Origin: Candidatus Dojkabacteria bacterium
Lineage (GTDB): Bacteria; Patescibacteriota; Dojkabacteria; J137
Assembly: GCA_030950485.1 (NCBI GenBank)
Contig: JAUZRK010000001.1
Coordinates: forward strand, 39,998 to 103,997
Direction of reading: 5' to 3'
DNA: 64,000 bases
Numbering within the stretch: the first letter of the stretch is position 1; every line of letters begins with the position of its first letter. The notes under the pieces are model-generated. The model saw only the letters and a list, made by a program, of their open reading frames with translations. It was not told the DNA's origin and ran no database searches. This document shows positions 3,729-48,468 of this stretch, one piece after another. A program made the position numbers and the translations under genes.

Positions 3729-3752
3729 AATAAAGACCGGACGCGAATCAAA

Positions 3753-3782
3753 AGGAGGCATTTAAATGCCTCCTTTTTTTTA
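3753..3782. terminator. Rho-independent terminator (AGGAGGCAT..ATGCCTCCT + T8), likely bidirectional between tig and the convergent minus-strand gene
   Basis: Perfect 9-bp stem followed by a T-run at 3775-3782. Confidence 0.7.
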
Positions 3783-5151: not shown

Positions 5152-5183
5152 AAAAAAAAAGACACCTATAAGGTGTCTTTTTA
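5152..5183. terminator. Rho-independent terminator (AGACACCT-ATA-AGGTGTCT flanked by A9 and T5) downstream of rpsI
   Basis: Perfect 8-bp stem with a flanking A-run (5152-5160) and T-run (5179-5183). Functions for the minus-strand ribosomal operon. Confidence 0.7.
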
Positions 5184-39769: not shown

Positions 39770-40375
39770 CTACCCTACTATTTGTTTTAAATATTTAATC
39801 TGACTGATTAGAATCAACAAAGAGTTTCTTGGGCCTAATATTAAGTAGTTTTGACCAGAAGCATTGTGTATTCGTTCTAATTCTAACTTAGTTGGATCTA
39901 AAAGTTCTTTAAATTTCGAATTTACTTTTTCGCTCGCTCTAGATTTTAATTCGTAGTTCCCATCCTCATCAATTGTAAATAGACAAAAAACATCATCGCC
40001 TTTAGTATAATTAAGATATTGAACCTTCATACTGCTGACTACTATTTCTAATTTTTCATGTCTATTTGTAATATTTACGAGAGGTAGTTTTATAGTAGAT
40101 CTATCTATCTCTGCAACTGACATTATTGATATAGTAATAAGTGGATGCGGCAGCGATTGGTCTTTAGTTATAACAAGCTCGTACTGCTGTTTGAAAAGTA
40201 TGTCTTCAAACATAATAACTATGTTTGTATCGCTTTTAATATCAACATTAAATTGAATATCTCTACCCACGATTGCTTCGTCCCAAATATCTAATATATC
40301 TTCTGCAAATGCTGGATATAAGTTTAACTCTTTATCGTAGAAAGGTCCTTTTTCTGTTTACTCTTCGATATTGTT
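39770..40375 (-). CDS. Hypothetical protein; N-terminus apparently split by a frameshift at an A5 run (MADNKTISKSKQ.. in another frame upstream of 40270)
   Basis: ORF 39770..40270 continues upstream without a stop to about 40340 in one frame. An ATG ORF (MADNKTISKSKQKKDLSTIKS*) in the adjacent frame overlaps it at acagaaaaagg. Confidence 0.3.
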
Positions 40376-42726: not shown

Positions 42727-44118
42727 TTGACCAAACCATATTCTAAAATTTTTGAACTTAAGTTTTTTTCTCACCTTATATTAATCTTACTTAGTTTTGG
42801 GATTTTAACTATACCCCTTGTTACTGGTTTTAATAATTATACTCTAGGAAGAGGTTGGGATTTGCCAAAGGTTAATTTATTAATGCAATTATTAGTATTA
42901 CTTAGTTTTTTAATACTAGTGCAAAAAACTTACTTAATCTCTATTAATAGACTGAACTTTAGTAGGGCTAAGAAGATTCTTCTGCCTATAGTTCTTTTAA
43001 CCTACCTATTTATAGTAACAATTAATTCTAGTTGGACTAGAAATTTAGATCCAGATACTGAATTAAATAGTATTTATAAGTTCCTCTTTCATAATATTCT
43101 TGGCAAGACTGAACTAATCGAAGTAAATCAATCTTTAGTCGGAAATGCATTTAGAGAGACTGGATTTGTGTTTTATTTTATCTTATTGGTATCTCTATTT
43201 CTAATCTCATCTTATATAAACAAAGATACTATTAAATATATATTTTTAGCTTTTATAACCTCTTCAATTTTACAGTCATTTATTGGGCTAAATCAGTTTT
43301 ATAGACTCTACCAAAATGACCCAGAAAATATTTTTCTTGGAGAAAGAGTTTATGGAAGCTTTGGGCAGGCAAATTTTTTTGCAGGACATATTTTTATTGG
43401 CTTCTTTATTTCGGCATTCTTATTAACTAATTATAAGCAAAGGTCAAAGCTTAAAAATATAATTCTTTCAATTTCAACTAGCTTAATACTTTTAACACTA
43501 ATACTGTCTTTTTCAATTTGGATTTATGTAATCATGGTTCTATCCTTACTATTTATTCTAATTTATAAATACTTTGATAAAAAATACTATAGGAAAGTAT
43601 TGGCATTATTTTTTATTTTATTAGCAATCCTAGCAGTTCCATTAGGTTCCTTATTTGTTAAATATAATAGTGAGTATGAACATAGAGTAACTATTTGGGA
43701 GGATGTTATTAGAGTTTATATTCAAAACCCAATTGATGGTAAAGATGATATTAAACTAATGTTATTTGGTTCAGGTTTTGATACTATGGGCGAAGAATTT
43801 AGAGAATGGAATAAAATTCCTGGGAACTACACAGATAGGTCGCATAATATAATTTTTGATACAATTGCTTTTACTGGAATTTTTGGATTAGTAGTACTAG
43901 CTTCCGGACTGATATACATTTTTCTTAGAAGAAGTAGTTTTAATAGTGAACATCAGTATTTGCTTTTTACACTTTTCTTCTTACTATTAGCTAGAAACTT
44001 AGTTCATACTTACTCTGCTGTAAACTTATTTGAGTTATTCTTGTTTGGTATAATTTTACTGAATAGTGGTTTATACACTACGAAAGATCTGCAATCTGAT
44101 AAAGAGATTGCAGCTTAA
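42727..44118 (+). CDS. Polytopic integral membrane protein (10+ TM; possibly O-antigen ligase/polymerase-like)
   Basis: 463 aa, almost entirely hydrophobic helices with one larger loop. Family not confirmed. Confidence 0.35.
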   Translation: MTKPYSKIFELKFFSHLILILLSFGILTIPLVTGFNNYTLGRGWDLPKVNLLMQLLVLLSFLILVQKTYLISINRLNFSRAKKILLPIVLLTYLFIVTINSSWTRNLDPDTELNSIYKFLFHNILGKTELIEVNQSLVGNAFRETGFVFYFILLVSLFLISSYINKDTIKYIFLAFITSSILQSFIGLNQFYRLYQNDPENIFLGERVYGSFGQANFFAGHIFIGFFISAFLLTNYKQRSKLKNIILSISTSLILLTLILSFSIWIYVIMVLSLLFILIYKYFDKKYYRKVLALFFILLAILAVPLGSLFVKYNSEYEHRVTIWEDVIRVYIQNPIDGKDDIKLMLFGSGFDTMGEEFREWNKIPGNYTDRSHNIIFDTIAFTGIFGLVVLASGLIYIFLRRSSFNSEHQYLLFTLFFLLLARNLVHTYSAVNLFELFLFGIILLNSGLYTTKDLQSDKEIAA

Positions 44119-45973
44119 ATCCTCTTTTATCATAATACTCTCTTGTCCCAATAGCTGAGATTACAGCCAGTTTACTAAATCCATTCTCTTTCGCAATCTC
44201 TTTAGATTTCTCGATTAATTTTGAACCTAAGCCTAAATGTTGAGCTTCACCTTTTGAACCTTTTGACAGTTCTAGACTTGGACCGTAAACATGTACCTCA
44301 CGAATAATTGCAGAATCTTTTAACTCATAAGATACACTTCTCATGCTTTGTCCCTCCCCTTGAGGGGAGGTTAGGTGGGGTGAATCACCCCGGTCTTTAC
44401 GTGGAACTGATAATCTCAAAAAACCAGCAATCTCTCTCTCCTTCGTTATGTATTGTAAAAAGTACTCAGTACTTACAGTTGTAGAGAATTTAATAATGTC
44501 TAATTCAAGATCATCAAAAGTAACCTTTTTTCCTTTAATTTCTCGAGCTCTGATATTTGGATTAGCTCTACTCTCTTTCTTTAATTTATATTCAACTACT
44601 TGTCTTAAATTTGTAGTTTTATTTCCAGCCTCAATTTCCGTTGAAGGTATATCTCTAATTACTCTAGTTATTCTAGTATACTCGGGTGCAGTCTCCATCA
44701 TCTCTGATATTAGTTTAATCAAGGTTTCATTATCATATGGTTCGTATTTGCCTTCTTCATATAAATCACTAAGCTCAGTGTTTTTGATAATTGATGTTGG
44801 ATAAATTTTCACTTCGTCAGGTTTATAATTTTCAGACTCATATAACTCATGCCAAGATTTCAAATCTATTTCTGGTCTTGCACCGTAAAGATTTGGCATC
44901 ATATGCGCATGGATTTTAAACCCAGCTTTACGAAGCAATGCAAATGCGTTCGCTGTGTGAACCTTATGTTCTCCTCTTTTATTTAAATCGCTTATATTGT
45001 CGTCTAAAACTTGGATTCCAAGTTGTACCTTAGTAGCTCCGAGTCTTCTCATTCTATAAACCTCTTTTTCAGTTATTAAATCGGGTCTAGTTTCTAAAAC
45101 TAAACCAACACATCTTATTTTCCTAATAGCATTAGTTTTATGTAAATCTTCTAATTCTTTCCATAAATCATCAACTGAAGTTTTACGATCGTATGTTTCT
45201 AAAGCTACATATTTATTTTCAAAACCTTCCTTAAACTCTTTAGTTCTTACAAGCTTATTATATGAATCATCTCCAATCTCATCTCTTAATTTTTCATTAT
45301 AATCCTTTGATAAATATTCTTTCATCTCAAGAGCACTTAGAGTATCTTGTTTATCGTCAACATCGCTACTTATTTCAAATTCCTGCATAGCTCTAAAACA
45401 TTCTTTAATAAACCAAACTTGATACTTTTCTGGATAAGATGACCAAGATCCACCAAGAATTAGTAGTTCAATCTTTTCAGTTGGATGACCAATATTTTTT
45501 AATGCTTTTAGTCTATTGAAAGTCTGTAGATATGGGCTAAATTTATTAGCTAAAGCCCTCTGCGCTCCTGGCTCTGTCGCTATATAACTCTTTGGCATTC
45601 TTACATCATTTGGACAGAAGACACACTTCCCAGGACACATCCAAGGTTTTGTGAAAACAGTTACAGTAGTTACTCCTGAAATAGTTCTAGTTGGTTTCAT
45701 TTTAATAAAACCTTTTAGCTTTTGAAAACTGGTATTATCTTTTACTTCTTTCTCTAACATCTCTATTCCTTGAATAAGTTGGTCTCTAGAAAAGAGTTCT
45801 GATTTATCTTTCGGATTATTTTTTAATATTCGTTCAATTTTTTGATTAAACTTTATTCTATTTTTTTGTGTTATTTTTCTAAATTCGTCAGTGTCTATCA
45901 AATCTAGGATTTGATTTAATATTATAGTTAGCTCAGTTTTATATACCTCAGGACTGAATTGATATTTTTTCAT
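44078..45973 (-). CDS. elp3: Elp3-like radical-SAM/GNAT tRNA modification enzyme (elongator protein 3 homolog)
   Basis: Radical SAM Cx3Cx2C (..TKPWMCPGKCVFCPNDV..), central Elp3 core, C-terminal GNAT (..REVHVYGPSL..HLGLGSKLIEKSKEIAKENGFSKLAVISAIGTREYYDKRGF). 631 aa. Carries an in-frame GC-rich palindromic insertion (44343..44402). Confidence 0.8.
   Translation of the reverse strand: MKKYQFSPEVYKTELTIILNQILDLIDTDEFRKITQKNRIKFNQKIERILKNNPKDKSELFSRDQLIQGIEMLEKEVKDNTSFQKLKGFIKMKPTRTISGVTTVTVFTKPWMCPGKCVFCPNDVRMPKSYIATEPGAQRALANKFSPYLQTFNRLKALKNIGHPTEKIELLILGGSWSSYPEKYQVWFIKECFRAMQEFEISSDVDDKQDTLSALEMKEYLSKDYNEKLRDEIGDDSYNKLVRTKEFKEGFENKYVALETYDRKTSVDDLWKELEDLHKTNAIRKIRCVGLVLETRPDLITEKEVYRMRRLGATKVQLGIQVLDDNISDLNKRGEHKVHTANAFALLRKAGFKIHAHMMPNLYGARPEIDLKSWHELYESENYKPDEVKIYPTSIIKNTELSDLYEEGKYEPYDNETLIKLISEMMETAPEYTRITRVIRDIPSTEIEAGNKTTNLRQVVEYKLKKESRANPNIRAREIKGKKVTFDDLELDIIKFSTTVSTEYFLQYITKEREIAGFLRLSVPRKDRGDSPHLTSPQGEGQSMRSVSYELKDSAIIREVHVYGPSLELSKGSKGEAQHLGLGSKLIEKSKEIAKENGFSKLAVISAIGTREYYDKRGFKLQSLYQIADLS
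44350..44393 (+). repeat. GC-rich palindromic element (CCTCCCCTTGAGGGGAGG + GGGGTGAATCACCCC) inserted in-frame within elp3
   Basis: Two adjacent palindromes in an otherwise AT-rich gene, encoding ..DRGDSPHLTSPQGEGQSMRS... Related to copies at 56454..56492 and 59749..59796. Confidence 0.7.
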
Positions 45974-46034: not shown

Positions 46035-46697
46035 TTAGTAAATGAAATCAGTCCAATCAATGTGATTAATAGAACTATACTTGTAGTCTGTTGGATAATC
46101 GTATCCCCATTTTTCAGCGTGTTTCAAATGATTATTTATTGTATATAAGTATTTAACATTAAATTCTTTCTCATTACGAATTACTCTATAGTAAAAAGAC
46201 TTTTGCCATTTGAATTTTGGATCATTTGATTTTGGTATATCTTTTCGATGTCTTGATATGTAATCGTGTATTTGTTCTAGGAGATTTGGTAGAGAGGCAT
46301 TTGTATGATATTGCCGTGAACGTAGGGGAAGAAACGTTTCTTCCCCTACGTTGCCTCTGGCGTTACTCCCTGCCATAGGCCCATTCGAATCAAACATCAA
46401 TTTATTAAACCCCATAATCGTATTACAGCTATGCGAAAACTGTTTCTTAATAGAAAACATAATTTTTGAAATATCAGACTTTTCTGATGGCTTAATAATT
46501 AGATGTAGATGATCATACAATATATTAAATGCATACAACTCGAATCCATGAATCTTTTTTGATAATTTCAATTGCATAATTAATAAGTCAGCGAACACGT
46601 TGTTTTTAAAATATGGATAATTATTTTGTGTTTTTGTTGTTATAAAATATATGGCATGATCTACATAAAACCTTTCTGTTGTTTTGTATTTGTTCAT
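46035..46697 (-). mobile_element. REP-associated tyrosine transposase (RAYT; IS200/IS605 TnpA-like HUH Y1 transposase) with an internal REP insertion
   Basis: HUH motif ..YDHLHLIIKP.. and RAYT C-terminal motif ..KWQKSFYYRVIRNEKEF... A perfect 30-bp palindrome CGTAGGGGAAGAAACGTTTCTTCCCCTACG (46321..46350) lies in-frame inside the gene (..GSNARGNVGEETFLPLRSRQYH..). Confidence 0.7.
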
Positions 46698-46784
46698 ACA
46701 TAATGATATACAATATAACGGGTTTTATAGATCGCAAAGAAATCAATATGAAAAGTTTTAGCAAGGAATTAAATCAAAAATTAA

Positions 46785-46818
46785 AGAGTAGGTGAAGAAA
46801 CATTTCTTCACCTACTCT
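46785..46818. repeat. REP-like palindrome AGAGTAGGTGAAGAAA-CA-TTTCTTCACCTACTCT, sister of the RAYT-internal REP; probably also the terminator of the helicase gene
   Basis: 16-bp perfect arms, same GAAGAAAC core as the 46321..46350 palindrome. T-rich on the minus strand downstream of the 46840..48468 stop. Confidence 0.7.
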
Positions 46819-46839
46819 TTTTAAATTTACCTTCTATTC

Positions 46840-48468
46840 CTATGAGTTCAAAATAATTAATTCACTCTTTGCCCTTGTTGCTGCTACGAATAATAGTTGT
46901 CTATCAACCTTTGTAAATTCTTCTTTAGATATATCACATTCTAATTCAAAAAACTGGTTCTTATCTAAAAAGCTATTTTTATTTGCAATAAATACAGTAT
47001 CAAACTCCATTCCTTGAGAATCTTCTGAAGTTAAGAAATGATAATTATCTGGCCAGTTTTGATTTTTAGAAAAGTCTAATTCTTCTATATATTTTGAAAG
47101 AACTCCTACCTGTCCTTTATAACCTGTATCTACAAGCTTGTTTAATTCAGCTGTAATATGTTCATGTTTTAATTTATCATTTACAAAATTCATTTCAATA
47201 ACCGCTTTTCCAATTTCTGTTACCATATCAACGTTTACATCATAGTCCTCTTTTTCTAACCAACTTAATATAGACTTTGTATTCCTATATGCTTTAGTTA
47301 GAGTCACCTCATTATCAACAGGATATCCTTCTTCTAATTCATTCCAACTTCTTATTGTAAATGGTTTTGTTCTTTGGTTAATATCTCCAACATAGGTTAC
47401 AGAGTCGAATTTGACATCCGTAATAATCTTAATTATATCAAGCTGCATTGGCAACCAGTTCTGAACCTCGTCTACAACGATATGACTATATACTCTCTTA
47501 TGAACTTCTGTATTCTTGCATAGAAGTGCAGTATCAATATCATCTAACCAATAATCTTCTTGCTGATTATTTATAAATGATTTAAATATTTTTAAAAATG
47601 GGGATTTAGATTGAAATGAGTTATATATATTAAAAAGCCTATCTAAACCAACATTTTCTTTACCTATGTTTTTTAATGCTTCAAGTTTATATTTTCTAAT
47701 TTCATTGAAAATGATTTCAGGGTTTAGATTTGTACCTACTTCCATTTCATAATTAAGAATAGATAATGCCTGATCTTTTGTTAAAGCTTTATATCTTTTA
47801 TTAAAGTTTTGATTTACTACTGCCAAAGACCATTCCAAGAAGGTTAAGACTTTTGCAGTTTTTATTCCTAAATCAAGTAGTAATGTACTAAAGTATTTAA
47901 TTGCTGAATTATCACTTACAAATACAATTATATCTTCAGCTTTAAAGTACTCGGTAAACTCTGGTGATTGAATTAAATAAGCCAATCTATGTAGAGCAAG
48001 AGTTGTTTTTCCAGAACCTGCTGGACCGGATATTAAAAAGCCTCCTTTTGGATCTAATCTAATTATTGTATCTTGAGCTGCTTCAAGTTGAGCTATTATC
48101 TCTGGAAGTGCGAAATCTTTTTTCTCTGATAAATGTTTATGAAAAATAAGTTCTCTTTCATTATCTTCCCTATCTAAAGTAAGATATGTGATATCACTAT
48201 TTGTAATGATATAACTATATTTTTCATTTATAAAAACTTCTTTACGCTGACCGTTTGGAATTTCGTACGAAGCTTTACCGTTTTTTTTTAATCGTAATCT
48301 TGCTATTGGAGATATCCAAGAGACAATATTTTCATCTCTATCAAAATGTTTACCAATAAACAGATTATAGTTCTGGCCATGTCTTTCTGAGTCAAAATCT
48401 ATTTTTGCAAAGTAAGTAGAATCTACTAGCTTTTCTAAACTATCTGCATCCTCGATAAACAGAGTCAT
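46840..48468 (-). CDS. UvrD/HelD-like superfamily-1 DNA helicase
   Basis: Walker A GPAGSGKTTLALHRLAYL, DExx ..IVVDEVQN.., ..TKAYRNT.., ..SQGMEFD.., motif VI ..LFVAATRAK... The reading frame stays open upstream of the annotated ATG, so a longer N-terminus with a non-ATG start is possible. Confidence 0.65.
   Translation of the reverse strand: MTLFIEDADSLEKLVDSTYFAKIDFDSERHGQNYNLFIGKHFDRDENIVSWISPIARLRLKKNGKASYEIPNGQRKEVFINEKYSYIITNSDITYLTLDREDNERELIFHKHLSEKKDFALPEIIAQLEAAQDTIIRLDPKGGFLISGPAGSGKTTLALHRLAYLIQSPEFTEYFKAEDIIVFVSDNSAIKYFSTLLLDLGIKTAKVLTFLEWSLAVVNQNFNKRYKALTKDQALSILNYEMEVGTNLNPEIIFNEIRKYKLEALKNIGKENVGLDRLFNIYNSFQSKSPFLKIFKSFINNQQEDYWLDDIDTALLCKNTEVHKRVYSHIVVDEVQNWLPMQLDIIKIITDVKFDSVTYVGDINQRTKPFTIRSWNELEEGYPVDNEVTLTKAYRNTKSILSWLEKEDYDVNVDMVTEIGKAVIEMNFVNDKLKHEHITAELNKLVDTGYKGQVGVLSKYIEELDFSKNQNWPDNYHFLTSEDSQGMEFDTVFIANKNSFLDKNQFFELECDISKEEFTKVDRQLLFVAATRAKSELIILNS

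Follow-up and report, generated by a model that had tools for sequence, protein, structure and literature searches.

The 64-kb window analysed here (the whole stretch of 64,000 nucleotides, positions 39,998 to 103,997 of contig JAUZRK010000001.1 of a Candidatus Dojkabacteria bacterium) encodes an intact Y1 HUH transposase-family protein (46035..46697, minus strand) resembling the REP-associated tyrosine transposases (RAYTs; REP, repetitive extragenic palindrome). The gene carries in frame a perfect 34-bp palindrome (46319..46352) with the double-foot REP arrangement GTAG...CTAC, and homologous palindromes are present at the same site in 55 other loci. With a probability of roughly 0.6, this palindrome is the cognate REP-type hairpin of the RAYT-like enzyme encoded around it, an ancestral and family-wide DNA element situated in the coding region of a disordered loop, which would form a minimal REPtron together with a sister hairpin upstream of the gene (46783..46820).

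Two related hairpins and one conserved site

The internal palindrome, AACGTAGGGGAAGAAAC followed by GTTTCTTCCCCTACGTT, starts at codon position 1, codes for N116-S127 (NVGEETFLPLRS) and places a 17-bp GC-rich stem mid-way in an AT-rich message. The original prediction, made from the letters of this DNA and its open reading frames (ORFs), had described a perfect in-frame palindrome of 30 bp (46321..46350); perfection and frame were upheld, and the extent was corrected to 34 bp. The sister hairpin has two 18-nt arms (46783-46800 and 46803-46820) around a 2-nt centre and GTAG at both feet, which gives the gene a cognate GT[AG]G hairpin within 1 kb, and, compared with the internal copy, a single compensated pair (G/C to T/A) and a centre base are changed. 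Both hairpins contain the core GTAGGNGAAGAAAC, which, allowing no or one mismatch, has four matches in the 64 kb, all within these two palindromes, a number reached by none of 100 shuffles. A census of REPs within the window gave two copies only, both at the RAYT-like gene, and no doublets. The lower stem of the window hairpin is non-consensus, with GGGGA/GGTGA against GGCGA in the family.

The sister hairpin precedes the RAYT ATG by 86 nt and follows, at a distance of 20 nt, the stop codon of a UvrD-like helicase gene (46840..48468, minus strand), whose 3' end it adjoins. It had originally been described as a near-identical 34-bp palindrome (46785..46818) downstream of the RAYT-like gene, an extent that was also corrected; it is indeed the same REP-like hairpin with GTAG feet, but since the gene is on the minus strand the hairpin is upstream of its start. 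It is terminator-like on both strands, in line with the earlier proposal that the intergenic hairpin doubles as a terminator, and would seem to serve the adjacent helicase gene as its terminator.

In a protein search, 26 homologues with 32-55% identity were obtained, mostly from Patescibacteria-type metagenome-assembled genomes (MAGs), and the DNA of 80 related loci was taken from species-representative genomes of Patescibacteria, Peribacteria/Peregrinibacteria, Gracilibacteria, Cloacimonadota, Spirochaetota and others. Within the 330 nt that precede the KFKWQ codons, the best hairpin of 55 full-length genes and of the window is a GC-rich palindrome, perfect or nearly so, 22-70 bp long (median 32) and mostly located 70-125 nt before these codons. 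Of 59 full-length genes, 56 contain an internal palindrome, which persists at 27-46% protein identity and in several phyla. The palindromes have a GC content of 57%, compared with a locus median of 35%, and unrelated strong palindromes are scarce (28 in 322 kb of the same loci). Judged by this distribution, the palindrome is an old feature common to nearly all relatives and no recent insertion, and the feature in the window is ordinary within its own family.

This bears on the earlier suggestion that the gene had been colonised by its own REP and may mark a recently inactivated or autoregulated element. Perfect palindromy could suggest youth, and the window protein is divergent, with changes at the HRNSQKR motif and at D170/H171. 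However, a recent self-colonisation with inactivation is refuted by the 55 other loci, from many phyla, that have the homologous palindrome in this position. An intact ORF with HuH, WQ and Tyr and a host linker that is a family feature also speak against it, which leaves recent self-colonisation with hardly any probability. The element may be autoregulated, the other option offered in the earlier suggestion.

Three intact members of the 59 full-length genes are without an internal palindrome (L040, L046 and L055); one of them, L055, is without the whole linker and resembles an empty site. All three fall in a Spirochaetota-type clade in which L034, L053 and L057 carry palindromes in three different frames, and to which the truncated L061 (Spirochaetota) also belongs, in which long related palindromes flank the gene (1869-1910 and 2522-2555) and none lies inside. 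From these arrangements, the element looks most dynamic in this clade.

DNA pairing and the encoded peptide

The 56 palindromes align without gaps (alignment A2), with a conserved outer part, G[AT]AGGCGA...TCGCCT[TA]C, and an inner 8-12 nt that vary among loci yet remain complementary. Paired cells make up 94% of this alignment, 14 of 16 pairs are altered on both sides and 224 cells are compensated; none of 500 shuffles reached the observed compensated pairing, and slid controls were 32-45% paired. Pairs 13-18 each show 20-31 double-sided changes. Self-complementarity also holds for the central 4 nt, which are unable to pair in a hairpin, in 50 of the 56 palindromes, against a chance of 1 in 16. 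Because pairing extends through the centre, either DNA strand can form the same hairpin with a 5' G(T/A)AG foot.

An RNA-level hairpin, acting as a target of RNase III or another double-stranded RNA nuclease or as a ribosome pause, might keep transposase expression low with no involvement of RAYT recognition. The 17-bp GC-rich stem amid an AT-rich message would suit such an element, and many REPs have been argued to act as RNA (De Nocera et al., PMC3733652). However, in columns 5-18 of A2, where 760 of 784 cells are Watson-Crick, the 24 mismatches include five sense-strand G.T and nine A.C, giving no excess of the G.U-compatible class. The loop-forming centre is self-complementary in most palindromes, which is needless for an RNA hairpin, and the palindrome is also found in flanks that are not transcribed or run in the opposite orientation. 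There is also no T-run after the internal hairpin, and a terminator scan of the window did not call it as a terminator or attenuator inside the gene. An RNA element is unlikely on this evidence, and an RNA-only structure was rejected as the main explanation on account of the palindromic centre and the lack of a wobble bias in the sense strand.

The palindromes are translated in all three reading frames (46, 9 and 1 loci), with the minority frames dispersed over a rough neighbour-joining tree, and the peptides encoded in different frames are unrelated (EGDIPECRL, KARSRDLAF and HKRRFESSL). In the protein alignment, the palindrome-encoded residues fall in a shared block, EG[DE]xxxxRL[RQ], in which hardly any variation is seen at G118 and R124. 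A compensated change of GGC/GCC to GGG/CCC in the window replaces this Arg by P124, which argues that DNA pairing, and not the peptide, is under selection. Selection, or a copying mechanism, acts on DNA self-complementarity rather than on the peptide.

The near-invariance of G118 and R124 and the conserved outer half-sites (GAAGGCGA/TCGCCTTC) would also be expected if the conserved entity were the peptide motif EG[DE]xxxxRL, or the site of a dimeric regulator of double-stranded DNA, with the hairpin being irrelevant. Against this stand the three frames in use, which yield unrelated peptides such as KARSRDLAF, the exchange of the "invariant" Arg for Pro in the window by way of a compensated pair, and a spacer between the half-sites that is variable yet always self-complementary (pairs 13-18), which is not required of a dimeric site. 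Both versions were rejected on reading-frame usage and spacer covariation and have a negligible likelihood. The original prediction had allowed for a coincidental palindrome if orthologues carried the same residues without palindromic DNA. Similar residues (EG[DE]xxxxRL) are present in the orthologues, but so is the palindromic DNA, so that neither coincidence nor a private insertion accounts for the palindrome.

The encoded protein, flanking copies and proposed role

The product of 46035..46697 (220 residues and a stop codon) was identified by profile and fold as a RAYT-like Y1 HUH protein, as had been predicted, with 4ER8, the structure of E. coli TnpA-REP bound to a REP hairpin, as its best structural match. 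Pfam Y1_Tnp (PF01797) matches its N-terminal half only (residues 16-92, E 1.3e-7), and the NCBIfam model REP_Tyr_transpos (NF047646) matches in two stretches with a linker between, scoring 79.9 bits against a cutoff of 80. The ORF is unbroken and retains HuH, WQ and Tyr, all encoded on the minus strand. The HuH motif H63-L64-H65 (46503..46511) lies in DHLHL (residues 62-66), with H63 invariant in the protein alignment (A1), and the catalytic Tyr185 (46143..46145) lies in YTINNHLKH; H63/H65 and Y185, together with the PF01797 match and an IS200/TnpA-REP fold, place the protein in the Y1 HUH superfamily. The segment KWQKSFYYRVIRNE (residues 163-176) includes W164-Q165 (46203..46208), which correspond to W94/Q95 of E. 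coli TnpA-REP by alignment and profile match, and Y170-R171 (46185..46190), which correspond to E100/H101. In E. coli TnpA-REP, E100/H101 contact GTAG (PMC6006769). The window protein is a divergent member of its family, being without the N-terminal HRNSQKR motif and having Y/R in place of D170/H171, a position occupied by D-H in at least 90% of the family. The class 2 RAYT Y motif, Y-x-x-x-N-P, is not matched by the window protein (YTINNH), and its P is present in a minority of the family, of which the Y-motif consensus is Y-x3-[NQ]-x2-K-H. Membership of the IS200/IS605 TnpA subclass 1.1 was rejected, as the corresponding model (NF033573) scored 18.8 bits, below its cutoff of 55, and no second copy of the RAYT-like gene was found in the 64-kb window.

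Against 4ER8, the family profile falls into two aligned parts (positions 9-92 with residues 5-88, and 143-184 with residues 93-137), which means that a palindrome-bearing linker of about 40-70 residues is inserted just before W94/Q95, between alphaC and beta4. In the window protein, this expanded alphaC/beta4 linker, absent from E. coli TnpA-REP, comprises residues ~95-160 (46218..46415, minus strand), after the helix of residues 76-94 that follows the HuH strand and before the WQ strand. An AlphaFold (AF2) model of the window protein, built with 24 sequences, has a mean predicted local distance difference test score (pLDDT) of 82, and its top PDB match in Foldseek is 4er8_A (E 4.6e-7), ahead of the ISDra2 and IS608 transposases. 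Within the linker, pLDDT is below 50 for residues 110-129 and an extra helix is predicted for residues 135-153; in this model, the palindrome-encoded segment is a disordered surface loop.

Further palindromes sharing the locus-specific inner stem are present in 20 of 56 loci (within +/-3 kb). Upstream copies are found in 11 loci, including the window, at 13-122 nt before the start, with one more at 311 nt. L025, L053 and L057 also have a copy directly 5' of the start of homology, which was classed as "elsewhere" in the count because an earlier ATG had been taken. Downstream copies are located 1-71 nt past the stop in four loci, and some loci have copies kilobases off. Copies from the same locus are identical (L003 and L006, for instance, each have the same palindrome inside and upstream of the gene) or differ by compensated pairs, whereas those from different loci differ, and by this comparison a gene with its own hairpin family follows the REPtron logic of RAYT systems.

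Paralogue pairs occur in one MAG each (L001/L004, L005/L018, L012/L014, L016/L043, L017/L066, L025/L036, L029/L030 and L038/L058). In two-copy MAGs (e.g. L001/L004 and L005/L018) the paralogues are divergent and each has its own palindrome variant, which fits one hairpin family per enzyme; these divergent pairs and the single copy in the window give the low-copy, divergent-paralogue pattern of RAYTs. Among the copies of a locus, the most constant member is the one in the gene, and since 56 of 59 genes have an internal copy and 20 of 56 loci have flanking ones, the in-gene copy is also the best kept.

Perfect palindromy extends over 48-70 bp in L014 (2437-2506), L034 (3298-3349), L042 (2495-2542) and L045 (3295-3346), reaching into non-conserved flanking coding sequence. 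Such lengths are hard to attain by point mutation, which suggests arm-to-arm templated copying, by fold-back synthesis or gene conversion. Additional direct copies of one arm adjoin the palindrome in L053 (2830-2913 and 3350-3442), L036 (3294-3305), L024 (3309-3320) and L002 (327-338). In L053, three arm copies are found upstream of the gene with 30-nt spacing and four within the coding sequence with 27-nt spacing, forming in-frame 9-aa repeats that resemble the short protein repeats of RAYT subclass 2.4 (Fig. S6 of Quentin et al., PMC6006769). Taken from the long palindromes and the tandem half-site arrays, templated copying is a process that happens in this family. Perfect palindromes are also kept by three frameshifted homologues, L058 (3315-3338), L045 (2900-3750) and L060 (2900-3700). 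In L058, which derives from a single-cell Cloacimonetes genome, the frame shifts at the palindrome itself; this change could be a sequencing or amplification artefact or a real slip.

The palindrome might instead be a functionless passenger, a REP that landed once or repeatedly in a permissive loop and whose perfection comes from RAYT-driven turnover, gene conversion or arm-to-arm templated repair that also overwrites the in-gene copy. Both the 48-70-bp palindromes and the tandem half-sites point to templated copying and not to point mutation with selection, frameshifted genes retain perfect palindromes, and the palindrome-encoded segment is disordered in the predicted model, all of which agrees with a passenger, as does the view that subclass 2.4 insertions are peripheral and have little impact on the protein (Quentin et al., PMC6006769). 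However, the copy within the gene is better kept than those in the flanks, the internal palindrome persists despite the protein divergence between phyla described above, and the 64-kb window is without a dispersed REP population to homogenise against. A passenger is the main rival to a functional hairpin, although it is regarded as somewhat unlikely.

By analogy with the origins in phiX174 gene A and pT181 repC, the in-gene palindrome could also be the primary cis site of the system, with transcription aiding cruciform formation, hairpins being bound or nicked by nascent RAYT and the in-gene copy serving as a protected master that templates the other copies. This would explain why the in-gene copy exceeds flanking REPs in conservation, why the centre is palindromic too and why the copies of a locus co-vary in their inner stems. 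The proposal is tentative and its truth doubtful, but if true it would provide the first direct handle on RAYT function.

Under the preferred reading, that of a cognate REP-type hairpin, the encoded enzyme would bind the hairpin in single-stranded DNA or in an extruded cruciform, in the way that GTAG-footed REPs are bound by E. coli TnpA-REP. Recognition would rest on the foot and the lower stem, both of them conserved (G[AT]AGGCGA for most of the family and GTAGGGGA in the window), with the upper stem needing only to pair, and this combination of a conserved foot and lower stem with a free upper stem mirrors the known mode of RAYT recognition, by GTAG foot plus structure. Loci without the family Asp at position 170 more often show a non-consensus lower stem (Fisher p = 0.016, uncorrected for phylogeny), and the window, with Y170/R171 and GTAGGGGA, belongs to these loci; the association gives a weak hint of protein-DNA co-evolution. 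The in-gene copy would probably be a cis site tying the enzyme to its own gene, either limiting its own expression or activity or acting as a protected reference of the hairpin family, and the upstream copy may also end the helicase transcript and shield the RAYT gene from read-through.

Several observations weigh against a cognate hairpin. Recognition by the encoded protein is extrapolated from the RAYTs of E. coli, Stenotrophomonas and Marinomonas, and most family members have a GAAG foot and not the canonical GT[AG]G. The three intact ORFs without a palindrome, all from the Spirochaetota-type clade, indicate that an ORF can stay intact without it. In nine loci HuN takes the place of HuH, all with perfect palindromes, and these, together with the three frameshifted genes, imply that maintenance may not need the gene's own catalysis. 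The two copies in the 64-kb window give no sign of REP proliferation, and a dispersed high-copy population is not seen there. Continuous functionless homogenisation could yield the same pattern.

Elsewhere in the window, of which the GC content is ~30% throughout, the gene adjoining the RAYT-like gene (44078..45973, minus strand) has a product of 631 aa that matches radical SAM, Radical_SAM_C and, weakly, GNAT, in an ELP3-like architecture, which is uncommon in bacteria. Other short perfect palindromes are located at gene ends (3750..3777, AAAAGGAGGCATTT/AAATGCCTCCTTTT; and 5156..5182, AAAAAGACACCT...AGGTGTCTTTTT); their sequences are not related to those of the RAYT hairpins, and they are likely to be ordinary terminators. 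No tRNA or tmRNA genes were found in the 64 kb.

Comparison with known REP and HUH systems

RAYT function and the origin and upkeep of REPs are a long-standing question, and Quentin et al. (2018, PMC6006769) called REPs within the genes of one RAYT subclass remarkable, yet regarded them as tolerated insertions. In TnpA-Y1 subclass 2.4 (RAYT group 4 of Bertels), a sister group of the window lineage, REPs inserted in frame between HuH and Y are a predominant feature (PMC6006769), and the arrangement in the window is not the unusual one that the original prediction took it to be. The REPs of this subclass are "double foot" (5' GT[AG]G ... C[TC]AC 3'), and further copies flank the gene (Quentin, Siguier, Chandler, Fichant 2018, PMC6006769), and the insertion, in the beta3/alphaC loop, was judged peripheral with a small impact on the protein (PMC6006769).

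The window likewise has an in-frame double-foot REP between HuH and Y; however, comparison with subclasses 2.4 and 2.6 by their published descriptions indicates several differences. Subclass 2.4 has NH[IFV]H and YIxNNP, whereas the window lineage has DH[LFV]H and Y-x3-[NQ]-x2-K-H (DHLH and YTINNH in the window), and the palindrome is in the beta3/alphaC loop in the former and one loop further, in alphaC/beta4, in the latter. The window lineage also has an N-terminal HRNSQKR motif and mostly a GAAG foot, and it is found chiefly in Patescibacteria, Peribacteria, Cloacimonadota and Spirochaetota. Distant loci in the set (L067 and L070-L080) have NH.H and YIxNNP, with the palindrome directly after the HuH strand as in subclass 2.4, and both loop arrangements therefore occur side by side in the same locus set. 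On these motifs and positions, the window belongs to an undescribed lineage outside subclass 2.4, mostly from the candidate phyla radiation and Cloacimonadota, with a different insertion loop and unusually clear signs that the palindrome is maintained at the level of nucleotides. In full-text searches, no paper was found that combines tnpAREP or REPtron with Patescibacteria, the candidate phyla radiation or Cloacimonadota, and term searches of Bertels 2017 and Corneloup 2021 found no passage on REPs inside the RAYT gene in the former and no in-gene REP terms in the latter. Subclass 2.6 (Bertels group 5) has a helix-forming insertion between alphaC and beta4, comparable to the extra helix predicted at residues 135-153 of the window protein; by description, it differs in having NH[LIV]H and YIH[QN]NP, Bacteroidetes hosts and weak, atypical flanking structures, and an in-gene REP is not reported for it.

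The best profile and fold match to the window protein is E. coli TnpA-REP, of the E. coli REPtron (4ER8; Ton-Hoang 2012, Messing 2012, Corneloup 2021). Both systems have a GTAG-footed hairpin adjoining the gene, and W/Q and the Arg of the guide-binding strand are conserved in the window. In contrast, E. coli REPs are imperfect, bulged and extragenic, with hundreds of copies, while those of the window are perfect and uninterrupted, with two copies in 64 kb, one of them in the gene; the window protein also has a 65-aa linker between E. coli residues 88 and 93, and Y/R as the equivalents of E100/H101.

IS200, in the work of Beuzon and Casadesus, reportedly has a perfect left-end hairpin just upstream of its Y1 transposase gene that acts as a terminator against outside read-through. 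The window also has a terminator-like perfect hairpin upstream of a Y1-family gene; however, IS200 is mobile and multicopy, its hairpin is end-specific and its coding sequence contains none. In phiX174 gene A and pT181 repC, the nick or recognition site of the HUH enzyme, with hairpin or cruciform potential, lies inside the enzyme's own coding sequence, an arrangement that favours cis action. These are rolling-circle replicons in which nicking is demonstrated, whereas the window has no sign of replication and no sequence relationship to them. Rickettsia palindromic elements and intragenic REPs (PMC3733652) are similar in being palindromic repeats tolerated in frame in coding genes, but they occupy non-homologous sites in many unrelated genes, whereas the palindromes of the window family occupy one fixed site in one gene family across phyla.

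Relative to these systems, the present results add a second lineage, mostly of candidate phyla, with a different loop, a near-universal hairpin, compensatory upkeep despite the loss of an otherwise invariant residue, and flanks that are less conserved than the in-gene copy. These features speak for selection of the in-gene hairpin as a cis element and against its being debris, and the lineage offers small and simple enzyme-hairpin pairs for biochemistry.

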